The notes below the pieces were generated by a model that saw only the letters and a program-made list of their open reading frames with translations, was not told where the DNA came from and did not search any database. 64,000 nucleotides of DNA from Candidatus Pacearchaeota archaeon (GTDB taxonomy: Archaea; Nanobdellota; Nanobdellia; Pacearchaeales; GW2011-AR1): the NCBI GenBank assembly GCA_023139205.1, contig JAGLOA010000001.1, positions 906 to 64,905 of the forward strand, written 5' to 3'. Positions within the stretch are counted from its first letter, which is position 1; every line of letters starts with the position of its first letter. Of this stretch, positions 1,410 to 36,471 are shown in pieces. A program made the translations under genes and the position numbers.

Positions 1410-1751
1410 ATGGAATATGAAACCCCTAATAATTTTGATTCATTAATTATAGAAGAATTACAAAAAGAAAAATATGTTGGCGAAGAGACAATCTATGGAA
1501 ATCTTGCTAAGACATTAAGAGAGGAATGCACTCCTAGTTTTATTGAGCCTATTAAAAAAGATTTAGATTTTCTAACAGAACAAGGAACAATTGCTAGATA
1601 TAGTTTAGATCATTCAAGGAATTCTAATGCAGCTTTTATTGATTTTTTGTGTGATGAATTAATATACCATTTGCCTAAAAAGATAGCTAAATTAACTAAA
1701 GAGAACGCATATGCTAGGGAGACACCCCATTCATTATTAAGAACAGCTTAG
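1410..1751 (+). CDS. hypothetical protein
   Basis: 113-aa ORF preceded by AT-rich promoter-like spacer; no motif recognised. Confidence 0.35.
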   Translation: MEYETPNNFDSLIIEELQKEKYVGEETIYGNLAKTLREECTPSFIEPIKKDLDFLTEQGTIARYSLDHSRNSNAAFIDFLCDELIYHLPKKIAKLTKENAYARETPHSLLRTA

Positions 1752-1830
1752 ACACTTAATAACAATTCTTAATATTAGATTACTTTTTCTAAACCCCATA
1801 ATTTTTAAATAAAATATTCCTTAATATTAA

Positions 1831-2295
1831 ATGGTGAATCAAGAAATTCTTGGAGGATTGGAACTGGCGATTGCTAAAGGAGAATCTTTAAAACAGGCTA
1901 TGATGAGTTTTTTTAATGCAGGTTATAAAAGAGGAGAAATAGAAGAAGCTGCAAGAGCCTTTCAAATAAAGCAAAGAGAATTAAGAGAAGTTCTTGATGA
2001 AAAAAATAAAAAGTCAAAAAAGAAAATAAAAAAGTCCAAAAAAATTAAACCAGTGAAGAAAAAAAATGTTAGGTATGTCCAAAAAGTTTCAAATTACGAA
2101 GCCCCAAAACCAATGAAAAAACCCTTGGAGAAAAAAGGAAAACAAAAAATTTCTAATTATGGAGAAAAACCAAAATTAGTAGGAAAAATTTTGACTTTTA
2201 TATTCATCTTTCTTTTATTCATCTTGCTGGGAGTTTTAGCAAGTGTTTTTTTCTTTAAACAAGAATTAATTGATTTTTTTAATAAATTTGTTTAA
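1831..2295 (+). CDS. hypothetical lysine-rich protein with C-terminal transmembrane helix
   Basis: 154 aa; K-rich centre (KKSKKKIKKSKKIKPVKKK), hydrophobic C-terminus ILTFIFIFLLFILLGVLASVFFF. Confidence 0.4.
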   Translation: MVNQEILGGLELAIAKGESLKQAMMSFFNAGYKRGEIEEAARAFQIKQRELREVLDEKNKKSKKKIKKSKKIKPVKKKNVRYVQKVSNYEAPKPMKKPLEKKGKQKISNYGEKPKLVGKILTFIFIFLLFILLGVLASVFFFKQELIDFFNKFV

Positions 2296-2998
2296 AATGC
2301 TGGAAATCTACAATCCAGAACAAGATTCTTTTCTTTTATCAAAAGTTCTTTTAAAACAAATCCCAAAACTTTTGAAGAAAAATAAAAATTTAACTTTTTT
2401 GGAAATAGGATGTGGAAGTGGAATTCAGCTTCAAACAGCTTTAGAATTAGGAATAAAAAAACAAAATATTTTTTCCTGTGATATAAATCCAAAAGCAGTA
2501 AAACATTGCAAGAAACTTAGATTTCATTGTGTAAAGTCAGATTTATTTGAAAAAATTGGTGATAGGGGGTATCAGTCGGAGGCAATGAAAAGATACCTCC
2601 CTTCCACGCTTCGAGGAAGGAGCGAGGTTATCGAGTTGCGAGAAAAATCGCGAAATCGACAACGTCAACTCGGTGGCCGAGTTGGGAGGAAAATCAAGGG
2701 GTTTCCTCGCAAATATAATTTAATTATTTTTAATCCTCCTTATTTGCCTGAAGATAAAAGAGAGCCAAAAAATTCTTGTTTAGCAACAACAGGAGGAAAA
2801 AAAGGAAATGAAATTATCTTAAGATTTTTAAAACAAGCAAAAAAATATCTTGAAGAAGATGGGAAAATTTTTCTTATAACTTCTTCTCTTTCAGAAAAAA
2901 TTGATTTTGAAAAGTTGGGATACAAGGAAAAAGAAATTGGATGCGAGAAATTATTTTTTGAAAGGTTGTGTGTTTGGGAGATAAAATTATTTAAATGA
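2270..2998 (+). CDS. HemK/Mtq2-family protein N5-glutamine methyltransferase carrying an in-frame 150-nt GC-rich insertion
   Basis: Motif I LEIGCGSGIQ and catalytic NPPY (LIIFNPPYLP). Canonical spacing SDLFEKIG..KYNLIIFNPPY is interrupted by a 50-aa hydrophilic insert (DRGYQSEAMKRYLPSTLRGRSEVIELREKSRNRQRQLGGRVGRKIKGFPR) encoded by the GC-rich element at 2561-2710. Confidence 0.7.
   Translation: MIFLINLFKMLEIYNPEQDSFLLSKVLLKQIPKLLKKNKNLTFLEIGCGSGIQLQTALELGIKKQNIFSCDINPKAVKHCKKLRFHCVKSDLFEKIGDRGYQSEAMKRYLPSTLRGRSEVIELREKSRNRQRQLGGRVGRKIKGFPRKYNLIIFNPPYLPEDKREPKNSCLATTGGKKGNEIILRFLKQAKKYLEEDGKIFLITSSLSEKIDFEKLGYKEKEIGCEKLFFERLCVWEIKLFK
2561..2710 (+). repeat. GC-rich hairpin element, copy A (family with 8398-8480 and 17656-17759), inserted in frame in the methyltransferase CDS
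   Basis: Stem GGGGGUAUC/GAUACCUCC enclosing loop with invariant UCGGAGGCAAU; also shares GAGGAAAATCAAGGGGTT with copy C; exactly 150 nt (3n), no stop. Confidence 0.6.
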
Positions 2999-3016
2999 AT
3001 TTGTTTCTTTACTTAA

Positions 3017-3850
3017 ATGAACAAGAAAAACAATCTCCCCTATTCATTAAATTGGTTAGATTTGAATTGGGAAAAGAAAAAATACAAAAATATTTGGGTG
3101 TTAACTTTGTCAAACCAGACTGAAGATTATTATGATCTGGTTACAAATTATGGGAATTTATTTTCAGAAATCTTTTTAGAAATTAAAAAATTAAATCTCT
3201 TCGCTTCAACACCTCGCATTAATGTAGCTTTATTTCCTAGTGAGATCTTTGCAGAAAAAACCAAAATACCTTTTTCTTGGGGAATCGGGTGTGTGCGTTC
3301 AACAAATGGAAAATTCTCGGATACTTTATGTTATAAATATATTCCAAGTAGAAAAATCCCTACTTTTAATAGATCAACCCTCGAAGGAAAACGTGGAAAT
3401 ATCCATGAAGTAGTTCACCTTTTCTTTGCCAAACAAATTCCATTTAGTACTAGGGCAATAAATGAGGGTTTTGCTGAATTTGTTCCAAGAATTCTTTTTA
3501 ATCTTCAGAAAGGTTTAACTGAATCAACTAATTATTTTAATTCATTAACAGAAAAAGATATTGTAACTTTTGGAGAAATTGACACTAAAGGATTAGCATA
3601 TTTCTCATCAGAATTGATTGGTAAAAATAAAGCATATGCCTCAGCGTTCCTAGGGATTTTATGGCTAGTAGATGCTTTTTGTGGGAAAAATAAAAATTAT
3701 TTTACTGGAGCAAAGAAACTAATTAAGATTTTATCAGACTGCAAAAATGCAGAAGAATGTTATGAAAGCATTTACAAAAAAACAAAAGTGGATTTAAGAA
3801 ATTCAAAAGCTCCAATCTTAGAAGGTATAAACTTGCTAAAAACCAAATAA
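3017..3850 (+). CDS. HExxH zinc-metallopeptidase-like protein (paralogue of 31547..32287 and 34470..35165)
   Basis: HEVVH followed by NEGFAEF (HExxH...NEGxAx[FY] signature shared by three ORFs in this window). Confidence 0.5.
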   Translation: MNKKNNLPYSLNWLDLNWEKKKYKNIWVLTLSNQTEDYYDLVTNYGNLFSEIFLEIKKLNLFASTPRINVALFPSEIFAEKTKIPFSWGIGCVRSTNGKFSDTLCYKYIPSRKIPTFNRSTLEGKRGNIHEVVHLFFAKQIPFSTRAINEGFAEFVPRILFNLQKGLTESTNYFNSLTEKDIVTFGEIDTKGLAYFSSELIGKNKAYASAFLGILWLVDAFCGKNKNYFTGAKKLIKILSDCKNAEECYESIYKKTKVDLRNSKAPILEGINLLKTK

Positions 3851-4261: not shown

Positions 4262-5269
4262 TTATCTCCTAATATCTTTCCAACTTTTCTTTTTGTTTTT
4301 GAGATTTTCTAATTGTTCAAATTGTTCTTCAAAAACAGGTTTTTGTGTTTGATAAAAAATTCCTAAAGGAATTTTCTTGCCCCTGTGTTCAGTGTTTTGG
4401 GGTACACCGAGCAGTGCAATTCCGTTATAATCAAATTCCTGAGCTCTTTTCCATGCCTGCTCAAAATTTGTTTTATCATGATTGACTTTATCTAAAGAAT
4501 ATACTTTTTTTCTATAAGAAGCATCTTGATGAAAAATTAAACAAGGTTGCAGAACTTCGATAAATGCAAAACCTTTATGCTTGAATGCTTCATTTAAAAC
4601 ATATTCAATTTGTTTTACATCTGCAAAAACCCTCGCAACAAAACTTGCACCAGAAGCAAGCATTAATTTTATTGGATTTAATGGATGAACTTTAACTCCT
4701 TGAGGTGTTGTCTTGTCTTTAAATCCTATTTCAGTTACAGGTGTTGGTTGCCCCACTGTTAAAGCAAAAACCTGATTATTATGAACAAGATATTTGAAAT
4801 CAGAATTATATCTTGCAGCATGAATTAAATGCTCCATACCTTCTGCATAAGCATCTCCATCCCCAGAAAATCCTAAAACACTTAAATTAGGATTCCCAAT
4901 TTTCAAACCCAAACACGTCGGCAAAACTCTACCATGTAAGCTATTAATCCCGTTTAAATTTATATAATCAAAAAGTTTAGCATGACAACCTATTCCAGTA
5001 ACAATTGCAAAATCATCTTTATTTTTCCCTTTTTTTATTTGATCTTCAATTACTTTTTTCACACCAGCAAGTATTTGAAAATTATAACATCCAGGACACC
5101 AGGTATTTTTTGTTTTTGTTGATATGTTTGTCATTTTAATGTCTATTATAACCTCCTTTCTTTTCATATTCTTTGTGAGATTCATAAACTTCCAGAACAA
5201 TTTGTAATATTTCATATTCATTATTAGCAGTATTTGTATATAATGCTCGTGCTTCTTTTGATATATCAA
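4262..5269 (-). CDS. 2-oxoacid:ferredoxin oxidoreductase beta subunit (TPP-binding, PorB/KorB-like); true start probably near 5134-5167
   Basis: N-terminal TKNTWCPGCYNF (WCPGCG motif of PorB/KorB), TPP-binding GDGD-like region. The track start at 5269 overlaps the next ORF by 134 nt, so the real start is probably an internal Met (MKRKEV.. or MTNISTK..). Confidence 0.7.
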   Translation of the reverse strand: MIYQKKHEHYIQILLIMNMKYYKLFWKFMNLTKNMKRKEVIIDIKMTNISTKTKNTWCPGCYNFQILAGVKKVIEDQIKKGKNKDDFAIVTGIGCHAKLFDYINLNGINSLHGRVLPTCLGLKIGNPNLSVLGFSGDGDAYAEGMEHLIHAARYNSDFKYLVHNNQVFALTVGQPTPVTEIGFKDKTTPQGVKVHPLNPIKLMLASGASFVARVFADVKQIEYVLNEAFKHKGFAFIEVLQPCLIFHQDASYRKKVYSLDKVNHDKTNFEQAWKRAQEFDYNGIALLGVPQNTEHRGKKIPLGIFYQTQKPVFEEQFEQLENLKNKKKSWKDIRR

Positions 5270-6368: not shown

Positions 6369-7918
6369 TTCAACCTCCCCTCAATTTCCTTTTTCAACTC
6401 ATCAGCTAAAAATGGTCTACCATCATATCTTAAAATTTTATTCTCAATAAAAATCCCTGTTTTTTCTGTAATTAAACTTCCTAATTGTCCTGTTGAATTA
6501 TTTTCAACTAAAATCAAATTCTTGTTTTCCAATTCTTTTTTAATTTTTTCTGGAAATGGTTCAATATATTTAATTTGAATAAACTTGCAACCTGCTTGCA
6601 GGTCTTGTCCCTCCTTGGGATTCTCGCTTGTGCCTCTTTGGGTATGCCCTCCATGGGTATCTAAATCTTTAATTGCATCTATTATTGCCCCTTTTGTAGA
6701 ACCCCACGAAACAACAACATTTTTTGAATTCTCATCCCCATAAATTTCATACTGCTCAAACTTCTCAGCTTCTTTTTTAATTTCAAAACCTTTTTTCAAT
6801 CTTTTTTCAATATTCTTTTCAATTATCTCAGGGTCTTCTGTTGCACTTCCTTCAGAATCTGTTTCATAAGAATTATATCTCCCAAATAAAGTAGATTTTA
6901 GAACAGAAATTAATTTTGATTTTTTATTTATTGTATAAAAACTTTCACCTAAATGTTTGTCTGAGATAATAATTGAGGGAATTTTGTATTTTTGTGAAAA
7001 ATAAAAAGCTTGATTAGTTAATTCTTCTGCTTCTTTTGGATCTCCTGGTGCAAGTACAACTCTGGGAAATTCTCCATGTCCAGAATGCCTCGCAATATTC
7101 AAATCTCCTTGCCCAGTATAAGTTGCCACACCAGTTCCAGGTCCAGGTCTTTGCGATAAAAAAATCACTAAAGGAACTTCTGCAATCCCAGTTAAACTTA
7201 AACCCTCTGTCATTAAATCAAATCCTCCCCCTGAAGTCCCAATCATTGTTTTAGCCCCTGTAATAGCACTCCCAACAGCTGCATTAATCACAGCAATTTC
7301 ATTTTCTAATTCAAAAACAAAAAAATTGTTTTCAATTTGCTTTTCAGCTAATTCCATTAACACAGAAGTGGCAGGAGTCATAGGATAAGCAAGATAAACA
7401 TCTAATCCAGATTTAATTGCCCCGTCTGAAATTCCCTGATTCCCATTTAAGAAAAATTTGTTTTGTCTTAACTTTAAAACTTTACAAACATTTCTTGTTT
7501 CTTCTTTATATCCTTGTTTAGCATATTTTATATTTTCCTCAAATCTATCACTAATTTCAAATAATTGTTTTTCTAACAACAAAAAATCCAAGCCAAGCAA
7601 CTTAAAAATTCCTCCGGCATAATACATATTTTCTTTATGGCCTTTCAAAATAACTCCTTTTTTGTTTAATTTATTTTCATGCAATTTTTCAGTATTTTCA
7701 TCTAAACAAACTAAAATATCTATTTTAGAATCATTACTATAAACAGGTTTATCTGAAAAAGTAAGAACATTAAAATTATGCCCCCCTCTAATCAAAGATT
7801 GATAATCTCTGGAATAAAAAACATAATTTCCCTGCCCAACTAATGCCTTCCCCAATATATTTGTCAAAATATTTGGACCACTTCCTGCAGGGCCTCCAAA
7901 AAGAATATTTAATCTCAT
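6365..7918 (-). CDS. 2-oxoacid:ferredoxin oxidoreductase fused gamma-alpha subunit (KorA/PorA-like)
   Basis: N-terminal gamma-like ILFGGPAGSGPNILTNILGKALVGQG; central YPMTPATS (alpha-subunit YPITP motif), GIAEVPLVIF; adjacent to the beta subunit. GC-rich patch 6589-6670 encodes a hydrophilic insert (DTHGGHTQRGTSENPKEGQDLQAGC). Confidence 0.65.
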   Translation of the reverse strand: MRLNILFGGPAGSGPNILTNILGKALVGQGNYVFYSRDYQSLIRGGHNFNVLTFSDKPVYSNDSKIDILVCLDENTEKLHENKLNKKGVILKGHKENMYYAGGIFKLLGLDFLLLEKQLFEISDRFEENIKYAKQGYKEETRNVCKVLKLRQNKFFLNGNQGISDGAIKSGLDVYLAYPMTPATSVLMELAEKQIENNFFVFELENEIAVINAAVGSAITGAKTMIGTSGGGFDLMTEGLSLTGIAEVPLVIFLSQRPGPGTGVATYTGQGDLNIARHSGHGEFPRVVLAPGDPKEAEELTNQAFYFSQKYKIPSIIISDKHLGESFYTINKKSKLISVLKSTLFGRYNSYETDSEGSATEDPEIIEKNIEKRLKKGFEIKKEAEKFEQYEIYGDENSKNVVVSWGSTKGAIIDAIKDLDTHGGHTQRGTSENPKEGQDLQAGCKFIQIKYIEPFPEKIKKELENKNLILVENNSTGQLGSLITEKTGIFIENKILRYDGRPFLADELKKEIEGRLK

Positions 7919-26277: not shown

Positions 26278-28974
26278 TTAGTAAAATCTTTTTTTAGGGA
26301 TGAATTTTTGTCCTGGTTTTTTAGAATGAAAATTTTTATTTTCTTTTTTATTGAATTTATTTAAAATCTTTCCAACAGGAAGTTCAACCATGCCAGTTCT
26401 TTTTCCCGAATATTTTTTCATAACATATGTTACTTGTTCAGAGGTCCAGCCAGTTTTCTTTAGTTGAGATACAATTTTTTTTTCATCAGCCCCCCCTTTT
26501 TTAGCTGTTTGAATATATGAAATTAAGTTATACAAATCATTTCTATTCTTGAACAAATAAGCTTCATATTTTTTCTTATACCATTCTTGCAAAATAATAT
26601 ACAAAACAAATCCGATAATTGCTAAAAGAGCAATTATCAAAACAAAAAGTGTGGCTTTTGATATCTTTTGTTTTTCTCCAGAAGTTTCTTCTACAATTGC
26701 TAGTTTGCTTATTGCAGGAGAAATAAACATAGGCAGGTTAGTGAAATCAATATTCTCTGTTGTAGAAAAAGTAATAGAAGTTTTCTCATCTTTTAAATAA
26801 ACATAATGGTATCCTTCAATATCTCTCTCTGAATAATCTTTCTTAAAATTTAAATTCTCTATTTTCTTCAAAATTAAATATGAATTTTGTGATTGGTTTT
26901 TCTTTTCTGCAGTTATTTGAAAGACTCTTAAAACAGGTTCAGTTAAATCTTCATATTTTGCAGAAATCTCTTCAAAAGTTATTTTTGTATCCATATTCTT
27001 TTGATTCCATGCAAAAACAGCGTCAATATACTCGCTTTCTTTATCATCTTTGTAGTCTCCTCCGCCAATATCTTTTAAAACAGAGATGTCCACATCTTCT
27101 TCCCCAGGATAAAATAAAAGCGAGTTTGTACTCGAACTTACTGAAACAGATTCAGGAATTTTTAATGCTAAAACTCTTGTTAAAATTGAATTATATCCTT
27201 CTTCATTAGCAGTTGCATAATCTTTTTTAATATTTGTAAAATCTTTTTCTGAAGAATCAATATTTAAAACAGAATTTAGCTCATCTCCATAAAATAAATC
27301 AAATGCATTAATTTGTGCTTTTACATTTTCTAAATCTGTCTGCATTTTACTCAAAAAAGATTCTATTAATTCTTTGGGTGATTTGACTGTTATTATAAAT
27401 GTTTGAGAAGTTTCTTTTCCTAAAGAATCTGTAATTGTTATTACTAAATTATATGTTCCTATAACATTATAGGTGTGGGTAACTTCATTTATTGTGGTTG
27501 TTTTAGTCTTATTGTCCCCAAAATCCCAAACATATTTTGTTATCCCAGTATTATTTGCATCATCTACTTTAAAGATAGTGGGATATGCAGATGCAGTAGA
27601 AGTAGGGGTAATCCCATTAATTATAGCTATTTTCTTAACAGAAATCTCTTCTGAAAAAACATACTCTTTATTTAATTCTAAAGTATAATTGTAATCCTTC
27701 AAAGTTTTTGAAACAGAAAAGTTTCCTTTATCTAAATAAAGTTTTTGAAAATCAGCATTAATTGTTGCAGAGGTTTCAGACAAATCAGAAAAATTATACT
27801 TTGTTGTAGATCCAGCGTCTAAACGATATTCTATTTCTAAATCTTCTAAAATTACTTCTTGTCCTATTGCTGTTTTTGAAGTGAATCTTACTGGAATTAC
27901 ACAACCATTTGAACAATCTCCACTACCATAAATTCCTGTTAAATAACTCCACAAATCAATTGGCTTTCCATCACTTATTTTTATTTTTAATGGGTTAGCA
28001 TTCATTGTTCTGAATGCTTTACCTTCAACAAAAATCTGATATGCTCCAGGAGTTCCTTGTGTTGGGGGGGGATTGCTATTAAACCCACAAGTTTCCGAGG
28101 AACTAGAATGCCCTTTTAATTCATAGTCCCCAGTCCCATCTTCATAATAAATACAAACATAATATTCTTTTCGCTTTAAAACTTGGTAATCAATTTCACA
28201 ATAAACTTCATCTCCTCCAAGGGTAATTTCTTCATAGTTTAATTCACAGTTTCCACCTAAAATAGAATCTCCGTTTAAATTATGAAGTTCCATTGTAAGA
28301 TTTTCTCCTCCTGCTTGTCCTCCTGGTTTTTGTCTTACCCAGGCACCAATTTTAAATCCAGGTGATTGACTTAAAGTTATTTTTTGACAAAAAGGAATGT
28401 CAGAGATATCATAATATGTTGGAGATGTTAGTTCTTCAAAACATCCATGAGTTTTTAAGTCAAAACAAACAGGATTATCTGCTGAAAGATTATTTCCAAA
28501 ATCAATCTCCCCATTATCAAAAAAATCAATCTCTAATTGACTTCTACAATCTGAACTAGCGTTACTATTAATTGTGAATTCCAAAGAACTTATCCCTTGC
28601 AAATTTCCAACAAAATTAAATCCAACAACCTTGGAATCTCCGTTGCCTAAACTAAATACTTTTGTTAGCTGAGAATTAATTGCACTATAACCTGTATCGC
28701 AACCAAGAGGATTACATTCATAATTGTAATCTGTTCTTGTTTTTAATAAGTCAATTAAACTAATAGAGTTATCAAAAGAATCTTCAAAAGTTAAATTTAA
28801 AGGAGCGTCTATTAAACTTATATTTATCCACCCTGAAATATAATCTGAAGCTCCATAAGAAGTTTCAATTGTGTGAGATAAATTTCCTATTTCAAATTTA
28901 TTAGAACTTGCAGAAATAATCCATGCACTTAATATTAGTGCAAAAATTAATGCAAATACAAATCCTCTTTTCAT
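26278..28974 (-). CDS. large surface protein with PKD-like domain and C-terminal membrane anchor
   Basis: Signal peptide, KYVWDFGDN...ITDSLGKE (PKD-type), TM helix near C-terminus followed by a K-rich tail; 898 aa. Confidence 0.5.
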   Translation of the reverse strand: MKRGFVFALIFALILSAWIISASSNKFEIGNLSHTIETSYGASDYISGWINISLIDAPLNLTFEDSFDNSISLIDLLKTRTDYNYECNPLGCDTGYSAINSQLTKVFSLGNGDSKVVGFNFVGNLQGISSLEFTINSNASSDCRSQLEIDFFDNGEIDFGNNLSADNPVCFDLKTHGCFEELTSPTYYDISDIPFCQKITLSQSPGFKIGAWVRQKPGGQAGGENLTMELHNLNGDSILGGNCELNYEEITLGGDEVYCEIDYQVLKRKEYYVCIYYEDGTGDYELKGHSSSSETCGFNSNPPPTQGTPGAYQIFVEGKAFRTMNANPLKIKISDGKPIDLWSYLTGIYGSGDCSNGCVIPVRFTSKTAIGQEVILEDLEIEYRLDAGSTTKYNFSDLSETSATINADFQKLYLDKGNFSVSKTLKDYNYTLELNKEYVFSEEISVKKIAIINGITPTSTASAYPTIFKVDDANNTGITKYVWDFGDNKTKTTTINEVTHTYNVIGTYNLVITITDSLGKETSQTFIITVKSPKELIESFLSKMQTDLENVKAQINAFDLFYGDELNSVLNIDSSEKDFTNIKKDYATANEEGYNSILTRVLALKIPESVSVSSSTNSLLFYPGEEDVDISVLKDIGGGDYKDDKESEYIDAVFAWNQKNMDTKITFEEISAKYEDLTEPVLRVFQITAEKKNQSQNSYLILKKIENLNFKKDYSERDIEGYHYVYLKDEKTSITFSTTENIDFTNLPMFISPAISKLAIVEETSGEKQKISKATLFVLIIALLAIIGFVLYIILQEWYKKKYEAYLFKNRNDLYNLISYIQTAKKGGADEKKIVSQLKKTGWTSEQVTYVMKKYSGKRTGMVELPVGKILNKFNKKENKNFHSKKPGQKFIPKKRFY

Positions 28975-28993
28975 ATTTTATAGAGAAAAAGAG

Positions 28994-29067
28994 AACTTAT
29001 AAATATTTTCTATTTCTTCTTTTTCTTCCCCAATAATTTCTTAAATTTCCCTTTCTTTTTTTAAAAT
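28994..29067 (+). repeat. direct repeat R1 (orphan copy of the 3' end of gene 32329..33750)
   Basis: 63/64 nt near-identical to 32324-32385; its first 28 nt are also identical to 29847-29874. Confidence 0.7.
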
Positions 29068-29171: not shown

Positions 29172-29825
29172 ATGAAAACATTAAATAAACACATTAAATG
29201 GAGAAAAGAAAAAGAAATACTTATTTGCGATTGCAAGAGAAATATCAACTTAAAAGTTCCTTTAAAATACGAAAAAGAATTAATTAAACTAGAAAAAGGA
29301 GAAAAAATAAATGAAAAATTAGAATTAGACTTTAAAAAATTAGGATTTTTAGTTGATTTAGAAATAAAACAAATAAACGATCTAAATGAATTATTTAAAT
29401 TATTAGACAAATTCCTAAAAAGAGCAAGAACAAATAGTTTTCTAACAAAAAGATACAAAGAAAATCCAAAGTTATTTATTGGAATTTATTTAGATAAAGA
29501 ATTAATTGGAGCAATAGGTGGTTTTTATAGAGAAGATTATTCTTTAATAAGTGAATTAGCTATTGATTCAAAATTTAGAAGAAGGGGCTTTGCAACTTTA
29601 TTAGTAAAAGAATTTGAGAAAAAAGCAGGAAAAATACAAGTTGGTGCTTTAGATGAAGCTATTGGTTTTTATGAATCACTTGGGTATGAATCTTATTTAT
29701 TTGTTCAAAAAGACAAAGAAAATTTCTATATAAAACATACCTCTGATTTAAAAAGAATTATAGAATTAAGAAAAAAATGCCCAAGTTTATGTTTCCAATA
29801 CATATTCAGGAAATATTGGGAGTGA
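29172..29825 (+). CDS. GNAT-family N-acetyltransferase with N-terminal extension
   Basis: C-terminal GNAT motif A FRRRGFATLLV; upstream 23-nt promoter-like sequence identical to that upstream of 39495. Confidence 0.5.
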   Translation: MKTLNKHIKWRKEKEILICDCKRNINLKVPLKYEKELIKLEKGEKINEKLELDFKKLGFLVDLEIKQINDLNELFKLLDKFLKRARTNSFLTKRYKENPKLFIGIYLDKELIGAIGGFYREDYSLISELAIDSKFRRRGFATLLVKEFEKKAGKIQVGALDEAIGFYESLGYESYLFVQKDKENFYIKHTSDLKRIIELRKKCPSLCFQYIFRKYWE

Positions 29826-29846
29826 AAGTTCCTAAAAAATAAAAAA

Positions 29847-29874
29847 AACTTATAAATATTTTCTATTTCTTCTT
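29847..29874 (+). repeat. direct repeat R2 (28-nt partial copy, TATA-like AACTTATAAATATTTTC) upstream of the precursor-rSAM operon
   Basis: 28/28 identical to 28994-29021. Confidence 0.6.
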
Positions 29875-29953
29875 ACTCAAAATCTTTTTCTTTTCACCTG
29901 CCAGAAAATTGAAGTATAGAAATCTATTTAAACTTTGAAGTGTGTAGAAAATT

Positions 29954-30118
29954 ATGGAAAAACTTGAAGCAAAAGCTGAAGAATTTGTTGGAAAAATGGA
30001 ACTTCGTTGCAAAGGTTGGTGCCATGACAAATATGAAATGAGATGTAAAGGATGGTGTCATGATGGAACTCCAAAAATGTATGACACAGATTTTCCAAAT
30101 GTTGAATACTTTAATTAA
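29954..30118 (+). CDS. candidate RiPP precursor peptide (54 aa) with tandem RCKGWCHD core repeats
   Basis: MEKLEAKAEEFVGKMELRCKGWCHDKYEMRCKGWCHDGTPKMYDTDFPNVEYFN; ends 36 nt upstream of the rSAM/SPASM gene; below the 60-aa ORF-track cutoff. Coordinates anchored on the antisense ORF 29924..30226 frame. Confidence 0.5.
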   Translation: MEKLEAKAEEFVGKMELRCKGWCHDKYEMRCKGWCHDGTPKMYDTDFPNVEYFN

Positions 30119-30154
30119 ATGCAAAAAGAAAAACTTTTCTTGAATCTTTTTTAG

Positions 30155-31564
30155 ATGAGACTTTCTAAATTTACCCATGTTTATGAATGTATTTATGAAG
30201 AAAACTGCTATTACCTTATTAGACATTCAATAACAAATAAATCTTTCTTTTTTACTGAAAAGGATTTTAACAAATTAGTTGAGGATTTAAAAAGCAAGAA
30301 AGAAACAGATGAAATAAACATCTTAAAGCAGAATCATCTTTTAGTCCAGGATTCTTATTCTGAAACTAAATTTGTTAATTACTTAAAAGAATCTAATAAT
30401 CTAAATAAATTTGATTTAGAATTAATCTATTTAATTTTTAATACTAGTTGTAATCTTAGATGTAAATATTGTTATGTAGAAGGAAGTGCCAAACTAGGGT
30501 TTAAGAATGATTCTATGAATGAAAAAACTTTTAATAAATTGATGGATTATCTTAATAAATTAATCCAACATCAAAAAAGGAAGAATCCTCTCAAAAATAA
30601 ATTAACTTTTATTTATTATGGGTCTGAACCCCTGATGTCAAAAAATTTTTTTATAAAAAGCTTAAAAATAATTCAAAAAATTTGTAATGAGAATAAAATC
30701 ACCCCAGATTTTCAAATAACTACTAATGGAACTCTTTTTGATGATGCGATTATAAAAGCAATGAAAGAATTTAAGGTTGGTGTTTCAATTTCTTTGGATG
30801 GAGAAAAAAAGATTAATGATTCTATGAGGATAACACAAAGTGGGAGGGGAAGTTATGATAAAATAATTATTGCAATAAATCTTTTAAAAAAATCAAAGAT
30901 TCCTTTTGGTATCTCTTGCACCATTAGTCAACACAATATAAATCATCTCAAAGAAAATGTAGATCATTTTATCAAATTAGGGGCTAGTAGTGTAGGATTT
31001 AATATACTTTTAAATGCAAGATATTCAAATATCCCTTTGATCCCCTTAACAACCTTAAATAATAATCTTTTGGAGGCTTCAAAAAAAGTTAATGATTTAG
31101 GCTTTTATGAAGATAGAATTCAAAGAAAAGTTCGGGCTTTTAATGGTATTCCCAGATTTAAGGATTGTGGAGGTGTCGGAAATCAATTAGTATTTTTTCC
31201 TAATGGAGACATAGGACCTTGTGAGGCTTATCTTTGCAATAGAAAATTTAATGCAGGAAATATAAAAACACTTAAAATTGAAGAGATTGAAAAAAGCCCT
31301 GTTCTAAAATATTGGACAAAAAGGTATCCTCTGAATATGGAAGAATGTTTATATTGCCCAGCATTGGGGATTTGTGGAGGAGGATGCCCATTTAATGCAG
31401 AAACAATTTCCAAGAAAAATATTTATCAAAGAGATAAACCTTTCTGCGTTCATACAGAGATGGTATTAAATTATTTGCTAAAAAAAAGCATTGAAGATAA
31501 AACAGGAAAAAAAGATCCATATATTAGAGATATAACTTTTATGTATTCAGATAATCTTTTTTAA
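30155..31564 (+). CDS. radical SAM / SPASM-domain peptide-modifying enzyme (N-terminal RRE-like region)
   Basis: CNLRCKYCY (CxxxCxxC), GSEPLM, ISLDG, C-terminal SPASM cysteines CGGVGN..CEAYLC..CLYCPALGICGGGCPFN; about 95-aa N-terminal extension before the rSAM core. Confidence 0.8.
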   Translation: MRLSKFTHVYECIYEENCYYLIRHSITNKSFFFTEKDFNKLVEDLKSKKETDEINILKQNHLLVQDSYSETKFVNYLKESNNLNKFDLELIYLIFNTSCNLRCKYCYVEGSAKLGFKNDSMNEKTFNKLMDYLNKLIQHQKRKNPLKNKLTFIYYGSEPLMSKNFFIKSLKIIQKICNENKITPDFQITTNGTLFDDAIIKAMKEFKVGVSISLDGEKKINDSMRITQSGRGSYDKIIIAINLLKKSKIPFGISCTISQHNINHLKENVDHFIKLGASSVGFNILLNARYSNIPLIPLTTLNNNLLEASKKVNDLGFYEDRIQRKVRAFNGIPRFKDCGGVGNQLVFFPNGDIGPCEAYLCNRKFNAGNIKTLKIEEIEKSPVLKYWTKRYPLNMEECLYCPALGICGGGCPFNAETISKKNIYQRDKPFCVHTEMVLNYLLKKSIEDKTGKKDPYIRDITFMYSDNLF

Positions 31565-32287
31565 TTCATCCAGTGCAAAATCTAAAATTTTCTTATTGTC
31601 TGAATTTTCTTTAAATTTTTTCTCAAAAATTTTAAATCCAAGATTCCTGTTTGAAATTAGTAGATTCTCAAAAATTTTATCAAATTTTTCTATGTCAAAA
31701 TTATTTAGCATTTTTTTATATGGTGGCTTCTCTTGATTTTTTTTGGATATTTTCATTTTTTTAATAGTTGAAATAGTTGAGATATCAACTTCCTCTAAAA
31801 TTTTCTTAGTCATAAACTCTGCATAACCTTCATCAAATTGGATAATTTTCTTATTCCCAATAAATTTATTTTTGTTAAATTTAAATTTTAAATAATTAAT
31901 ATCTTTTTTAATTTTTTTAGACAAATGTAAATGCAATGATTCATGAATTATTAATTCTAAAAAATCAATTGAAAAATATTCCCCTCTGTTAAATGGATTA
32001 AAATTCATTTCAATTATAGAATTTTTTTTAAAATCTATTGTTCCATAAGTCCCATTATTTAATGCACATTTTATTATCTCCTTTGAAATCCTGCTATTAA
32101 AACCATAACTTTCTACTTCTAATAGAACTTTTTCTATAAATCTCTTAAATGAATTATAAAAATAAATTTTTTTTGGAATAGAAATCTCATTTTTTCTGAG
32201 TAATTTTTCTGCAAAAATAATAATTTTTTTAAGATAGTCTTTTTCAAATTTATTAAATGAATTATTTGGACTAATAATTAATTCCAT
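31547..32287 (-). CDS. HExxH metallopeptidase-like protein convergent with the rSAM gene (candidate leader peptidase)
   Basis: LIIHESLHLHL (HExxH) and downstream DEGYAEF; paralogue of 3017..3850 and 34470..35165. Confidence 0.45.
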   Translation of the reverse strand: MELIISPNNSFNKFEKDYLKKIIIFAEKLLRKNEISIPKKIYFYNSFKRFIEKVLLEVESYGFNSRISKEIIKCALNNGTYGTIDFKKNSIIEMNFNPFNRGEYFSIDFLELIIHESLHLHLSKKIKKDINYLKFKFNKNKFIGNKKIIQFDEGYAEFMTKKILEEVDISTISTIKKMKISKKNQEKPPYKKMLNNFDIEKFDKIFENLLISNRNLGFKIFEKKFKENSDNKKILDFALDELKKII

Positions 32288-32323: not shown

Positions 32324-32385
32324 ATTTTCTATTTCTTCTTTTTCTTCCCCAACAATTTCTTAAATTTTCCTTTCTTTTTTAAAAT
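32324..32385 (+). repeat. direct repeat R3 (native copy, C-terminal coding region of 32329..33750)
   Basis: Encodes ILKKKGKFKKLLGKKKKK* on the minus strand; matches R1. Confidence 0.7.
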
Positions 32386-33750
32386 AAAAAATACATAAAT
32401 AAATGCAACAACTATAATTGTAACTACAATTCCATAATAATCAAAAAATGGCATTTGAATTTGTGCAGGACAAGGAACTGTTTTACTTCCCCCAACACAT
32501 TTTTTAGATGCTTCATCTGGATCATAATAACATTTCCCATCTTTATATAAAACATAATTCACTTTACATGGATCATCTGTAGTACCTTCATTTCCTTCAT
32601 CCCATTCCCATTCAGCTGTCCAAGTATAAGACATAAGTCCATCTTCACAAGTATCATCTGTACTCTTAGAAGAAACACACTTCCCAATTGTTGAAGGATA
32701 ATCTACAAGAGGAGCACAACCAGTTGTATCAAAAGTACATTCATTTTCTGTTCCAGTGGCATAACAAGCTAATCCAGTTCCTTCATTTAAATTAAAATCA
32801 GCACAAGTTTTGCTATTTAATAAAGTTCCATCACAAGTTTCCCCTAAATTTATTTCAGCACCATCACATAATCCTGCTGGATTACATCCAGTACATGATT
32901 CAATATTTAATGTACATTCATTTTCATGCCCCGGAGCATAACAAGATAAAGTTCCTGCAGTACAATCATCTATATTTCCACTACTACAATCTGTAAAAGG
33001 CATATCTGTTCCATCACATTTTTCTCCAGAACCTATTTCATTATTTCCACAATAATCAGAAAAAATTTCTCTCCAACCAGAAATACACCCATCTACCTCG
33101 CTCCACTCACAATAACAAGCCTTAGAATTTGAACTACAATCTATATCATATGTTTCTTTAGCATCATCACTTGCTACACCACAAGGATCAAAACCACATT
33201 CATTTTCATTATAATCTCCACAAGAAGCAACTTCTCCTATTCTACATGAAATAATATTGCAACAAATATTTCTTGAATAATCTTGATATGCTCCAATATG
33301 TGCATTAGTTGTTCCAGATAAAGAAAGAATCCCAACAGAATAATCTTCTTCTGCACAATTTCCTTCAGTATCAACACAAGTTAATCCATTATAACAAACA
33401 TCTTCATCATAAGTTATATCTTGAACTCTTTGAGCATGAGCATTTGTTTTAGAAGACAAACCAATTAATTTATTTGAAGAAATTCCTGCCCCATATATTG
33501 CGTGGTCTGTTAAAGAGCATTCATTTAGTTGAACCCCATTTCCAAAATCACAACACAAAGCATAATTATAATTTCCTTCATCATGAAGTTCTCCATGAGC
33601 ATTTGTAGAAGCAGACAACCCTAAAACAACATGGTCTCCATTGTTAAGGCAATTCTCTTTTGTGTCAACATAGCAAGTTTCAGCAGAAGCAATTCCTAAA
33701 AAAAGAATTAAAACTAAAATCATAAACAAACCTAACACTCTTTTTTTCAT
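32329..33750 (-). CDS. secreted cysteine-rich repeat protein with C-terminal TM anchor and lysine tail
   Basis: Signal peptide, about 60 Cys, repeated S(A/K/G)(S/T)TNAH(G/A/I) units, C-terminal VVTIIVVAFIYVFFILKKKGKFKKLLGKKKKK. Confidence 0.45.
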   Translation of the reverse strand: MKKRVLGLFMILVLILFLGIASAETCYVDTKENCLNNGDHVVLGLSASTNAHGELHDEGNYNYALCCDFGNGVQLNECSLTDHAIYGAGISSNKLIGLSSKTNAHAQRVQDITYDEDVCYNGLTCVDTEGNCAEEDYSVGILSLSGTTNAHIGAYQDYSRNICCNIISCRIGEVASCGDYNENECGFDPCGVASDDAKETYDIDCSSNSKACYCEWSEVDGCISGWREIFSDYCGNNEIGSGEKCDGTDMPFTDCSSGNIDDCTAGTLSCYAPGHENECTLNIESCTGCNPAGLCDGAEINLGETCDGTLLNSKTCADFNLNEGTGLACYATGTENECTFDTTGCAPLVDYPSTIGKCVSSKSTDDTCEDGLMSYTWTAEWEWDEGNEGTTDDPCKVNYVLYKDGKCYYDPDEASKKCVGGSKTVPCPAQIQMPFFDYYGIVVTIIVVAFIYVFFILKKKGKFKKLLGKKKKK

Positions 33751-34081: not shown

Positions 34082-34208
34082 TTTTAAAAAATTTAAATTT
34101 TATAATGCAGCACCCAGAGCATATGCGGCCATTCCAGCAGCTACACCCGCGGGAGATAGCACAATTGTCCAAGCACTTTTGAAGCATCCACAACTCATAC
34201 AAGAACAA
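34002..34208 (-). CDS. small cysteine-rich protein; GC-rich island 34105-34200 is open in two overlapping minus frames
   Basis: Track frame: ..KCLDNCAISRGCSCWNGRICSGCCII.. The +1 frame (ATG about 34198 to stop about 34100) gives MSCGCFKSAWTIVLSPAGVAAGMAAYALGAAL and has AT-rich third positions, unlike the track frame. Confidence 0.3.
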   Translation of the reverse strand: MFLYELWMLQKCLDNCAISRGCSCWNGRICSGCCIIKFKFFKNERMFSIIWKKDLFRRSFLFCVWIGT

Positions 34209-34282
34209 GCATTCACATTATACTCTAACTTACTTGCTTCGTCTATATTTGTGTCGTTAAATTCAAGTTTCTCTAGTAAAAT

Positions 34283-34477
34283 TTATGGACGAGGTAAACT
34301 ATTGCAAGAGACATCGCAAACATCACAACGATCGCAGGCAATACAATAATCATCCTTGTTTTTTGGAGAAGGTGATAAAATTTCTGCTTTTGCAAGACTT
34401 TCCAATAAATTAGAATCTTCTGCATCTACTTTTTCTTTTGTATATTTTTCTGATACTTGATTATATTTCTTATTCAT
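34283..34477 (-). CDS. candidate RiPP precursor peptide (64 aa), Cys/Asp-rich C-terminal core
   Basis: Helical leader (DSNLLESLAKAEIL) then DDYCIACDRCDVCDVSCNSLPRP; start overlaps the stop of the HExxH peptidase by 8 nt, in an operon with the rSAM/SPASM gene. Confidence 0.5.
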   Translation of the reverse strand: MNKKYNQVSEKYTKEKVDAEDSNLLESLAKAEILSPSPKNKDDYCIACDRCDVCDVSCNSLPRP

Positions 34478-35165
34478 TTGTATGAATCCTCCCTTTCATC
34501 TCTATAAATTCTTTTGGGGTGACCCCAAAGACCATATTAAATTTTTTATTAACCAAATCATCATTATCTCCTGATTGTATTTGATTTAAAAATTCAAATA
34601 ATTTTTTTCTTCCTTTTTCTTGACTAAGAATTTTATCTATAATAAAATATCCTGCAAAATAATCTTTTTTGTAATCTTTCATCCCCTTTAACAAACATTC
34701 TTCATCCCCTATTTTAAAATCTTTTATATTGAAATTTGGCGAAACAAATTGATACTTAAAATATGTAGCGATTCCTTCATTAATTAATCTTAGATTGGGA
34801 TGTTTCAAACCCCCATAAAATAAATGCGAAATTTCATGTGCAATTATTCCTCTAATTTCTTCTTTTTTATGAATTGTGCATTCTTCAACTACTGAAGGTG
34901 AAAACACAATTATTTTATTAGGATAAGTCACTTGCCCAACTATCCACTTTTCAAATTTATCTCTTCCAGAAAAAAAGATAAATTCTTCAGGAGAATAAAC
35001 TAAACACAACCTAATAGGATTTATGTCTTCTTCAGAATTAAAAAAAGTCTTAATTTCTTGATACATTTTATCTAATTCTAAAGAGTCAATAAAATCTTTA
35101 TCTTTTTCTTCAAATCTTATTAAAAAATTATCTTTTTTCTTTATCATTTTAAGTGTTATAAACAA
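34470..35165 (-). CDS. HExxH metallopeptidase-like protein (candidate leader peptidase)
   Basis: IIAHEISHLFYGG and NEGIATYF; immediately downstream of rSAM 35170..36471. Confidence 0.5.
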   Translation of the reverse strand: MFITLKMIKKKDNFLIRFEEKDKDFIDSLELDKMYQEIKTFFNSEEDINPIRLCLVYSPEEFIFFSGRDKFEKWIVGQVTYPNKIIVFSPSVVEECTIHKKEEIRGIIAHEISHLFYGGLKHPNLRLINEGIATYFKYQFVSPNFNIKDFKIGDEECLLKGMKDYKKDYFAGYFIIDKILSQEKGRKKLFEFLNQIQSGDNDDLVNKKFNMVFGVTPKEFIEMKGRIHTNE

Positions 35166-35169
35166 TTTA

Positions 35170-36471
35170 TTATTTTTCAGGTGTTAAAAATTCCTTTGAC
35201 AAAAGAACTTCTCCTAAATCTTTTGCTTTTGTTTGCATATTCTCAGGAAACTCAGACAAGTTAAAATCTCCTTGTTTTTGAAGATTAATTAAAAAATCTT
35301 TTAATCCCTTATTTGCATAAAGGGTTTGTCCATTAAATAAAGTATACTGGTCTTTAAATTCTTTTCTCCAAACAAAATCTCTGACTAAATATTTTTCATT
35401 TAATTCAACTTTTGGTTTTCCATCTCTTTTTATTTGTTGTTTTAAAGGGGAACTCATTCTTGAATCTTTTCTGTCTAGCTTTTCTCCTTCTTTATAACTT
35501 TCGAATCTACACCCTCCTTGACAGAATTTTACTTCAGCACAATCTTCACATTCATTGGGGATATATTCCTTTTTTCTAAATGGTTCTAATTTCTTCCATA
35601 TATCTTCAAAATTTTCTTCAAGAATATTTCCTTCTTTAAATGGAGAATGTCCGCAGGCTCTGACATCCCCTTTAGGAGAAATAATAAAACTTGTTGATCC
35701 TGCAGAGCAGGTCTTATTAAAAATTCTTTCTTCGCGTAAATGCTTAGGCAAAGCACAAAGAGGAATAACTTCTAAACTGGAAATATTTATCCCAAAGTCC
35801 CCCCTTAATTTTATCAAGTCTTCCAGTGGCTTAATCAAATCTTCTTTTGAAAGAGTGTGGGGTATCTCTTTTTTAGGAGGGTTTACTAAAGGAGTTGCAG
35901 CGAAATTCTTTATGCCATAATTTTCATACAAATATTTTCCTGTTTCATAAACTTCACTTTTGTTTAATTGATGAAATACCATATTTGGAACCACATGAAC
36001 TCCTTTGCGGAGAGCATTTTCTAAATTTTCATAAAATCTGGAGAGATTATTTTTTCCTGTTATTTGCTTATATAATTCCTTTTTATGACTGGGAATAGAA
36101 GTTAAAATTTGCAAATTAGGTTTTAAGAATAAGATTTTATCCAATCTTTCTTTAGTTAATAAAGTTAAATTAGAATTTAAATTATTAAATATTTTAGCTT
36201 CTTCAAATCTTTTCATTAAATATAATGTTACATTAAAATTCGTGAGGGGTTCTCCCCCTGTCAAAACAATGTGAAAAGGTCTTATATCGTTTATTATTTT
36301 ATCTGATAGAATTTTTGCATCTTCTTTTGTCATTTTGTTAGAAGCATTATTTTTTCTCCAATGATTATAACAATAAAAGCATTTATGGTTGCAATCTTCT
36401 GTAACTTCAATTTGCACATTAAGAGGAGATTTTAATCCAACACTTTTTTCCATTTTCCTTATATTTTTCAA
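35170..36471 (-). CDS. radical SAM / SPASM-domain enzyme
   Basis: CNHKCFYCY (CxxxCxxC) near the N-terminus, VLTGGEP, C-terminal Cys cluster CEDCAEVKFCQGGCRFESY (SPASM/twitch-like). Confidence 0.75.
   Translation of the reverse strand: MKNIRKMEKSVGLKSPLNVQIEVTEDCNHKCFYCYNHWRKNNASNKMTKEDAKILSDKIINDIRPFHIVLTGGEPLTNFNVTLYLMKRFEEAKIFNNLNSNLTLLTKERLDKILFLKPNLQILTSIPSHKKELYKQITGKNNLSRFYENLENALRKGVHVVPNMVFHQLNKSEVYETGKYLYENYGIKNFAATPLVNPPKKEIPHTLSKEDLIKPLEDLIKLRGDFGINISSLEVIPLCALPKHLREERIFNKTCSAGSTSFIISPKGDVRACGHSPFKEGNILEENFEDIWKKLEPFRKKEYIPNECEDCAEVKFCQGGCRFESYKEGEKLDRKDSRMSSPLKQQIKRDGKPKVELNEKYLVRDFVWRKEFKDQYTLFNGQTLYANKGLKDFLINLQKQGDFNLSEFPENMQTKAKDLGEVLLSKEFLTPEK

Follow-up and report, generated by a model that had tools for sequence, protein, structure and literature searches.

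The stretch of DNA analysed here (the window, 64,000 nucleotides (nt) long with a GC content of 28.6%) comes from contig JAGLOA010000001.1 of a Candidatus Pacearchaeota archaeon (GCA_023139205.1). It carries a compact unit of three genes (approximately 2.4 kb) encoding a 54-amino acid (aa) peptide, a radical S-adenosylmethionine (rSAM)/SPASM enzyme and a protein with an HExxH motif, designated HExxH1 (Table 1). The rSAM gene starts 36 nt past the stop codon of the peptide gene, and the HExxH1 gene is convergent with the rSAM gene and overlaps its 3′ end by 18 nt. An earlier reading of the letters (the sequence-only reading) had proposed that these genes and an upstream GNAT acetyltransferase form a cluster for a peptide that is ribosomally synthesized and then modified post-translationally (RiPP). 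The positions and sequences that it gave for the 54-aa open reading frame (ORF), the rSAM, the HExxH ORF and the GNAT all match the window. The small ORF exists as quoted; its description as unlisted does not apply everywhere, since it is called as a 54-aa gene on public contigs. The same locus is also present on contig DAOWGE010000014.1 of a Candidatus Pacearchaeota metagenome-assembled genome (MAG; GCA_030637545.1) and on several metagenome contigs of one study. A screen of the window for RNA genes returned no tRNA and no Rfam family.

The 54-aa ORF is a real gene under purifying selection. Of the 24 nt that encode RCKGWCHD, six differ between its two core units, all of them synonymously, which points directly to selection at the level of the peptide. 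Pairwise ratios of nonsynonymous to synonymous substitution rates (dN/dS) were 0.34 (window versus locus L008) and 0.15 (L010 versus L011). A genome scan with the rSAM protein identified 13 orthologous loci (rSAM identity of 43–76%) in MAGs labelled Pacearchaeota, Woesearchaeota, Nanoarchaeota or Diapherotrites. In all 13 a small ORF ends 7–56 nt 5′ of the rSAM gene, and 11 of these ORFs encode full-length homologs of the window peptide; in L018 the ORF begins at an internal Met, and the peptide of L019 is divergent and truncated (26 aa). A profile of the ortholog peptides recovered 76 sequence clusters. Conservation of the ORF–rSAM pair in related genomes, which the sequence-only reading had suggested as a check, is thus borne out. 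The peptide matched no family in Pfam or NCBIfam, and only one of 12 family peptides gave a marginal match (E 0.055) to the FibroRumin target model (TIGR04135). A TATA-like TTTAAA element located approximately 22–26 nt 5′ of the peptide ATG in eight loci fits a peptide gene with its own promoter and a leaderless transcript. A possible attenuator hairpin at the peptide/rSAM junction (30100–30160) folded no better than shuffled sequences (z 0.98).

The peptides share an N-terminal leader (ME[K/T/Q]LE...) and a conserved C-terminal tail, and fall into two types by the region in between. Type A (54 peptides) carries 84 units with the consensus x-[E/D]-L-R-C-K-G-W-C-H-D, in one copy (26 peptides), two (26) or three (2), followed by a Y..P..EYF[N] tail. 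Arg, Gly and both Cys residues are present in 84 of the 84 units, His in 83, Lys in 76 and Asp in 70; Trp is found in all of them by definition of the type. Type B (23 peptides) has the six-Cys sequence M-R-C-x-G-M-C-x-G-S-C-S-C-P-T-G-H-C-x-C-K, an SSDSYQFKKAA tail and a subfamily of rSAM enzymes that are 45–47% identical. The position equivalent to Trp is occupied in type B by Met (also Ser, Arg or Ala) and the equivalent His is absent. R-C-x-G-x-C is invariant in both types.

Table 1. Features of the three-gene unit and its surroundings in the window (positions in nt, or in aa of the precursor where indicated).
Feature	Position	Strand	Description
Precursor peptide gene	29954–30118	+	54 aa; assigned from sequence and synteny upstream of the rSAM gene in 13/13 loci
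Leader of precursor	aa 1–15		MEKLEAKAEEFVGKM
Core unit 1	29999–30034	+	ELRCKGWCHDKY; 12 residues
Core unit 2	30035–30070	+	EMRCKGWCHDGT; 12 residues
Precursor tail	aa 40–54		..Y..FPNVEYFN; conserved
TATA-like element	29924–29931		Upstream of peptide ATG
Radical SAM/SPASM maturase gene	30155–31564	+	469 aa; Pfam Radical_SAM and SPASM; Cys motifs
HExxH1 gene	31547–32287	−	246 aa; HESLH (H115/E116/H119); D152-E153-G154 (DEGYAEF)
GNAT acetyltransferase gene	29172–29825	+	Pfam Acetyltransf_10/1/7; GNAT domain at aa 79–175; 70-aa N-terminal extension
Repeat copy A	29005–29065		61 nt, 95% identical to 32324–32384; degenerate duplicate of 3′ end of 473-aa gene
Partial repeat copy B	29841–29874		34 nt, 94% identical to 28988–29021; between GNAT and peptide genes
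Repeat copy C	32324–32384		Functional 3′ coding end (..KKKGKFKKLLGKKKKK, then stop) of gene for 473-aa Cys-rich protein
898-aa protein gene	26278–28974	−	PKD-domain protein
473-aa protein gene	32329–33750	−	Cys-rich; internal DNA repeats (159–282 nt spacings); C-terminal transmembrane segment and Lys-rich tail
Second rSAM/SPASM unit	34100–36471	−	Unrelated to the first
Second-unit rSAM	35170–36471		433 aa; RRE-less
Second-unit HExxH protein	34470–35165		Classic M1-like HEISH-x17-NEGIATYF
Second-unit small ORF	34283–34477		Cys-rich; ..DDYCIACDRCDVCDVSCNSLPRP
Second-unit small ORF	34100–34216		Cys-rich; MNACSCMSCGCF..

By its motifs and domain scores, the enzyme encoded downstream of the peptide belongs to the radical SAM superfamily and its SPASM subfamily, as the sequence-only reading had stated. 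Pfam scores are above the cutoffs for both Radical_SAM (PF04055; 55.6 versus 29.5 bits) and SPASM (PF13186; 28.5 versus 21.5 bits). The CNLRCKYC motif (C99-x3-C103-x2-C106) and seven SPASM cysteines (C338, C356, C398, C401, C407, C411 and C431) are invariant in 25 homologs, and one further cysteine, C255, is invariant in the family. Approximately 60 homologs are more than 42% identical, and the named ones are called Pacearchaeota or Nanoarchaeota. The best NCBIfam matches were the FibroRumin system maturase (TIGR04136; 199.8 bits, cutoff 400), the PapB ranthipeptide maturase (NF047865; 159.1, cutoff 340), DynA (139, cutoff 450), the anaerobic sulfatase maturase (anSME, TIGR03942; 137.5, cutoff 349) and the SCIFF maturase (TIGR03974; 121, cutoff 425); weaker matches included YhhB (120.8 bits), a QhpD-type quinohemoprotein maturase (107 bits) and AmcB, FxsB and GrrM (approximately 93–95 bits). 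Apart from the sulfatase maturase, the ten best matches are all peptide maturases. The sequence-only reading had named a profile match to a non-RiPP family such as anSME, combined with a small ORF that is not conserved or not expressed, as evidence against its proposal; the rSAM reaches the cutoff of no such family and the small ORF is conserved. Membership in anSME was rejected because the score is below the cutoff, the N-terminal domain is extra and a dedicated small-peptide partner is conserved.

The N-terminal extension of the enzyme is predicted to form a RiPP recognition element (RRE)-like domain, a reading supported at the level of fold prediction. An AlphaFold 2 model of the protein (mean predicted local distance difference test score, pLDDT, of 86.6) has an N-terminal domain (residues ~7–80, pLDDT ~90) with three strands (7–14, 17–24 and 30–34) followed by three helices (35–46, 52–59 and 70–80), the topology of PqqD-like recognition elements. 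The nearest solved structures by sequence profile were CteB (5wgg; E 1.6e-34), 8vpo and anSME. Entry 8vpo was deposited under the title TigE and is cited in a study of rSAM cyclopropyl synthases (PMC10878394). Foldseek aligned the model over its full length, N-terminal domain included, to CteB and TigE (template modeling (TM) scores of 0.68–0.76). By contrast, anSME and ChlB matched only the catalytic part, the anSME match beginning at approximately residue 97, and SuiB matched more weakly (TM ~0.5). The RRE-like extension claimed earlier is thus recovered in the predicted fold and its structural alignments but not by the PqqD profile of Pfam, which gave no match at E ≤ 0.1.

More distant relatives of the rSAM (30–34% identity), in bacterial MAGs and metagenome contigs, also adjoin Cys-rich small peptides. 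Examples are L037 (2773–5151), L020 (1553–3708; Thermotogae) and L038 (2617–4446), with peptides such as ..CDCSTCACGACACNCSCNSCGACYCDCSC... Two distant-relative loci also adjoin HExxH proteins with a common NPICPR...HExxHF pattern.

The third gene, HExxH1, is convergent with the rSAM gene in 11 of the 13 orthologous loci, and the 18-nt overlap recurs in other genomes. A word-index search identified 49 homologs; all taxon-named ones are from DPANN archaea, and Pfam domains are absent from the whole set. When 1.84 billion representative proteins were searched with a profile, only 16 clusters and no distant relatives came back. As far as these searches reach, the HExxH1 family is private to the three-gene cassette. 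Its invariant residues include H115, H119 and D152-E153-G154, and E116 is kept in 29 of 30 sequences. The Glu of the DEGYAEF motif falls 33 residues past HExxH (HExxH-x33-E) in a helix that resembles the NEGFA helix with the third zinc ligand of M1 gluzincins. HExxH1 is predicted to have a zincin, gluzincin-like fold and is, from fold and motif only, a putative dedicated peptidase. Homology beyond the motif to the HExxH protein of the second rSAM unit, or to those beside the distant rSAM relatives, was rejected by BLASTP and hhalign (probability below 1%).

Taken together, the three genes probably constitute a self-contained RiPP cassette (precursor, RRE-containing rSAM/SPASM enzyme and HExxH1) found only in DPANN archaea. 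Synteny, conservation of the family and fold all speak strongly for the arrangement of precursor, rSAM/SPASM maturase and HExxH protein proposed earlier. The precursor would consist of the conserved leader, one to three short core units ([E/D]-L-R-C-K-G-W-C-H-D) and the conserved tail. The RRE-like domain of the rSAM would bind the leader while the enzyme installs at least one intramolecular cross-link per core unit via 5′-deoxyadenosyl radical chemistry. HExxH1 would then act as a cytoplasmic gluzincin-like metallopeptidase that removes the leader or tail, and it may also cleave between units, each precursor then giving rise to a small cyclic peptide several times over. The product could serve for antagonism or signalling among the symbiont, its host and its competitors. 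We infer from the gene and protein sequences that peptides of this family are cross-linked and processed, and likewise the kind of cross-link, the activity of the peptidase and where it cleaves, and the export and biological role of the product.

The conserved residues of the core narrow the candidate chemistry. The sequence-only reading had suggested Lys-Trp or Cys-Asp cross-links, and both are disfavoured as the conserved chemistry because Lys and Asp vary and type B lacks Trp. Lys is replaced by Leu, Gln, Ser or Arg in intact orthologs (rSAM 64–71% identical) and Asp by Ser, Lys or Asn in 14 of the 84 units. Both cross-links were set aside on this ground. The universal Arg, Gly and two Cys residues, together with the Cys-acting relatives of the enzyme, make thioethers the leading hypothesis. 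Our best guess is that both invariant cysteines would be bridged to carbon atoms of residues nearby in sactionine- or ranthionine-type bonds.

Several points weigh against the cassette reading and the thioether chemistry. The cassette includes no transporter or immunity gene. The rSAM reaches the cutoff of no curated NCBIfam family, so its chemistry is not transferable by homology, and its nearest structural neighbours differ widely in the reaction that they catalyse (formation of a thioether, cyclopropyl, cyclophane or formylglycine). There is also no obvious conserved acceptor for a thioether from Cys to a side chain, Asp and Lys being variable. Furthermore, the invariant or near-invariant Arg, Trp and His of type A could be partners in a C–C cyclophane.

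This last point leads to a different chemistry for the same RiPP cassette, in which the invariant Trp is linked to Arg or His in a C–C cyclophane and the cysteines form a disulfide or bind metal. We regard it as unlikely as a description of the whole family, while a Trp-centred cyclophane in type A (Trp-Arg as in WprB, or Trp-x-His) is possible. The cyclophane-forming maturases YhhB, AmcB, FxsB and GrrM, as well as ChlB, are all among the significant sequence or fold matches of the rSAM. Such enzymes typically act on repeated motifs of 3–5 residues, and the proposed bond can be likened to the Trp-Arg cross-link of WprB or to the three-residue W-x-x cyclophanes of triceptides (PMC11851443). However, type B lacks both Trp and His even though it has R-C-x-G-x-C and a related rSAM; the universal residues are Cys, Arg and Gly only. 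The best neighbours in sequence and structure (FibroRumin, PapB and CteB) are, moreover, Cys-directed.

The role assigned to HExxH1 has its own competitor: rather than a peptidase, the protein could be a tailoring enzyme (an Fe/alpha-ketoglutarate (alpha-KG) hydroxylase or an oxidative cleavage enzyme like ChlH, PflC and BpmH) or a non-catalytic partner. HExxH proteins paired with or fused to rSAM maturases in some systems are proven alpha-KG-dependent oxygenases with a zincin-like fold (PMC12636437, which cites Morishita et al. 2024), and HExxH1 resembles no peptidase family of Pfam or NCBIfam. The gene described earlier as metalloprotease-like is therefore present, convergent and conserved, whereas its peptidase function is an assignment that some proteins of this kind do not share. 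On the other hand, HExxH1 fails sequence membership in the alpha-KG-dependent HExxH oxygenases (IPR026337) and matched no alpha-KG HExxH model of NCBIfam at E ≤ 0.1, in a release whose inclusion of TIGR04267 was left unchecked. The invariant Glu of DEGYAEF also mirrors the third zinc ligand of the M1 NEGFA motif. The host lineages are probably anaerobes, which disfavours O2-dependent chemistry. We thus consider a tailoring or non-catalytic role rather improbable and retain the putative peptidase.

The distribution of the cassette suggests that it is inserted at different genomic sites. The trio has different neighbouring genes in each genome compared. In the window, the block of GNAT, peptide, rSAM and HExxH1 genes is bracketed by repeat copies A and C, which can be extended to 77 nt and align with a local score of 54.5 (maximum of 15.5 in shuffled sequences). 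Copy A is frameshifted by a 1-nt insertion and lies just upstream of the gene for the 898-aa PKD-domain protein, and the last 17 nt of copy B also match the start of copy C. Three orthologous loci are flanked in the same way: L017 by an 86-nt repeat (94% identity; 4642–4727 and 7192–7277), L008 by a 38-nt repeat (4699–4736 and 7255–7293) and L012 by a 24-nt repeat (1099–1122 and 3615–3638). The left copy ends 70–79 nt 5′ of the peptide ATG in these three loci. The repeats of the four loci are unrelated in sequence yet have the same geometry. These 24–86 nt direct repeats suggest target duplication on insertion, and it seems that the cassette can change its place in the genome.

Other observations at the orthologous loci concern the same question. 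The left repeat of L017 spans the last 52 nt of a 23S rRNA gene (Rfam), and a type B cassette follows directly after the gene. The 23S match at L017 (695–4693) is 3999 nt long against a model of 2987 nt, so that the gene probably carries approximately 1 kb of insertions or introns. Both types of cassette occur in one Pacearchaeota MAG, JBAZMK01 (type A at L014, type B at L017). At L019 (2436–3827), an interrupted rSAM ORF accompanies the truncated peptide and there is no HExxH gene, which looks like a decaying copy of the cassette. No integrase lies within the cassette and viral contigs contained no close relatives of it. Scans of metagenomes with exact patterns, which may miss variants, returned no empty sites for the insertions in the window and L017.

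A third explanation takes the peptide as the precursor of an intracellular cofactor or as a small metal- or redox-active protein (as in PQQ, mycofactocin or QhpC), with CxxxCH binding a metal or heme-like ligand. The cassette does lack a transporter, an immunity gene and a signal peptide, the QhpD-type maturase is among the weaker NCBIfam matches of the rSAM, and the conserved C-terminal Tyr-Phe recalls C-terminal modification sites in cofactor precursors. The C-x3-C-H spacing resembles variant metal- or heme-binding motifs. Yet one to three unit copies and a six-Cys variant are typical of multi-core RiPPs and not of cofactors, the distribution is patchy and insertion-like with flanking duplications, both subtypes occur in one MAG, and no partner redox enzyme is conserved nearby in the loci compared. 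A cofactor precursor is, in our judgement, very improbable. Finally, the notion that the small ORF arose by chance in DNA rich in AT and that the rSAM acts elsewhere (for example, on a protein, as an anSME-like enzyme) can draw on the lack of a Pfam or NCBIfam family for the peptide but is effectively refuted by the conservation, the synonymous-only divergence of the motif and the dN/dS values, as well as by the low anSME score and the lack of the N-terminal domain in anSME.

Unlike the three genes above, the GNAT acetyltransferase is not part of the conserved RiPP unit. The protein is a genuine GNAT (Pfam matches with E of about 1e-10) and lies upstream of the peptide gene as noted earlier, but a homolog was found within 5 kb at only 1 of the 13 orthologous loci (L008; 42% identity). 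In the window, the gene is bracketed by a 34-nt direct repeat of its own (28988–29021 and 29841–29874). The L008 homolog is translationally coupled to another rSAM/SPASM gene, which encodes an RRE-less protein of 368 aa and whose stop shares 4 nt with the GNAT start (the pair at 1420–3290), and this GNAT family may belong to another rSAM system. The L008 homolog keeps the same N-terminal extension, which might be a discrete recognition domain of 70 aa; the extension has no similarity to the RRE profile of the rSAM. At L015, an unrelated GNAT of 157 aa (6394–6867) lies directly 3′ of the rSAM gene, in the place of HExxH1. The window GNAT may have an accessory role, for example in acetylating the peptide, but nothing supports one.

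The cassette is flanked by the genes for two large secreted or membrane-anchored proteins, the 473-aa Cys-rich protein and the 898-aa PKD-domain protein. The start and upstream promoter regions of the two genes are alike (45 nt, 73% identity). Beyond the former lies a second rSAM/SPASM unit with its own HExxH protein and Cys-rich small ORFs, which is not paralogous to the first. Its rSAM has only weak best NCBIfam matches (NirJ2 and mycofactocin-type), and paralogy of the two rSAMs of the window was rejected, their similarity being at the SPASM level only.

RiPP clusters in DPANN archaea had been described in the sequence-only reading as essentially undescribed. Surveys with antiSMASH have already counted rSAM-type RiPP clusters in DPANN/Nanoarchaeota (PMC12144867), so that the statement is too broad for predicted clusters. 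It holds for characterised ones, as these surveys merely count predictions and no DPANN RiPP has been characterised. The present family is likewise not described: literature searches found no description of the peptides or of a CKGWCH motif. With 76 peptide clusters, approximately 60 close rSAM homologs and a private partner, the three-gene family is well defined and suited to heterologous co-expression. A new kind of rSAM cross-link, placed on a repeated motif of very few residues, could come to light in this family, as could a new group of peptidases or HExxH tailoring enzymes. The family could also help to show why organisms with minimal genomes retain a cassette for peptide modification and, it seems, pass it among themselves, and it bears on interactions between symbionts and their hosts or competitors. 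In its boldest form, the proposal joins an RCxGWCH cross-link new to rSAM enzymes (Cys/Arg/His-Trp, or a double bridge within seven residues), a new zincin-fold family and a mobile cassette with long duplications. If true, DPANN symbionts with reduced genomes would possess a peptide-based weapon or signal that can be transferred; that all parts of the proposal hold at once seems doubtful to us.

Compared with known systems, the cassette would work like minimal rSAM-RiPP systems, in which a leader guides an RRE-containing rSAM/SPASM maturase, here with a multi-core precursor; its nearest neighbours are the FibroRumin, SCIFF and ranthipeptide systems. FibroRumin (TIGR04136 with TIGR04135) is the best curated model for the rSAM, aligning residues 19–442 to positions 25–450 of 458, and it also has a Cys-rich precursor immediately upstream. 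However, the score is half of the cutoff and annotated maturases are only ~30% identical. The FibroRumin precursor has a Cys-rich C-terminus, whereas the cassette has a repeated RCKGWCH unit, an archaeal (DPANN) host range and a private HExxH partner. A literature search found no paper on FibroRumin chemistry. CteB, the RRE-containing and thioether-forming SCIFF maturase, is the closest solved structure by sequence profile and by fold (Foldseek E 1e-20; TM 0.68–0.72 including the N-terminal domain), and SCIFF systems share a minimal cluster of precursor and rSAM without a transporter. Membership fails at 121 versus 425 bits, the precursor does not have the six-Cys-in-45 pattern, and a profile alignment places Gly in CteB at the position of the invariant C255. 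PapB, the second-best NCBIfam match, forms Cys-Asp/Glu thioethers on repeated CxxxD motifs; its substrate likewise combines repeated Cys motifs with a nearby acidic residue. Its score is below the cutoff, CxxxD spacing is absent and the Asp after the second Cys is variable in the cassette.

The remaining comparisons are with systems of different chemistry. The substrate of TigE also has tandem short repeats. The cyclopropylglycine synthases TigE/TvgB (8vpo) have the best TM score among the solved structures (0.73–0.76), with a sequence match over residues 16–443 that includes the RRE. The reaction targets the methyl groups of Val within TVGG repeats (PMC10878394), whereas the units of the cassette have no conserved Val. 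Streptide maturases (StrB/SuiB; Lys-Trp) are also rSAM/SPASM enzymes with an RRE, and K-G-W is superficially similar to their target, but the structural match to SuiB is weak, Lys is not conserved and Trp is replaced by Met in type B. ChlB and ChlH likewise pair an rSAM/SPASM enzyme with an HExxH protein of zincin fold, and the ChlB rSAM and ChlH HExxH domains are among the matches. Every curated threshold tested failed, and the system is therefore not a member of any named family. Our verdict is that the cassette represents a new and real RiPP family.

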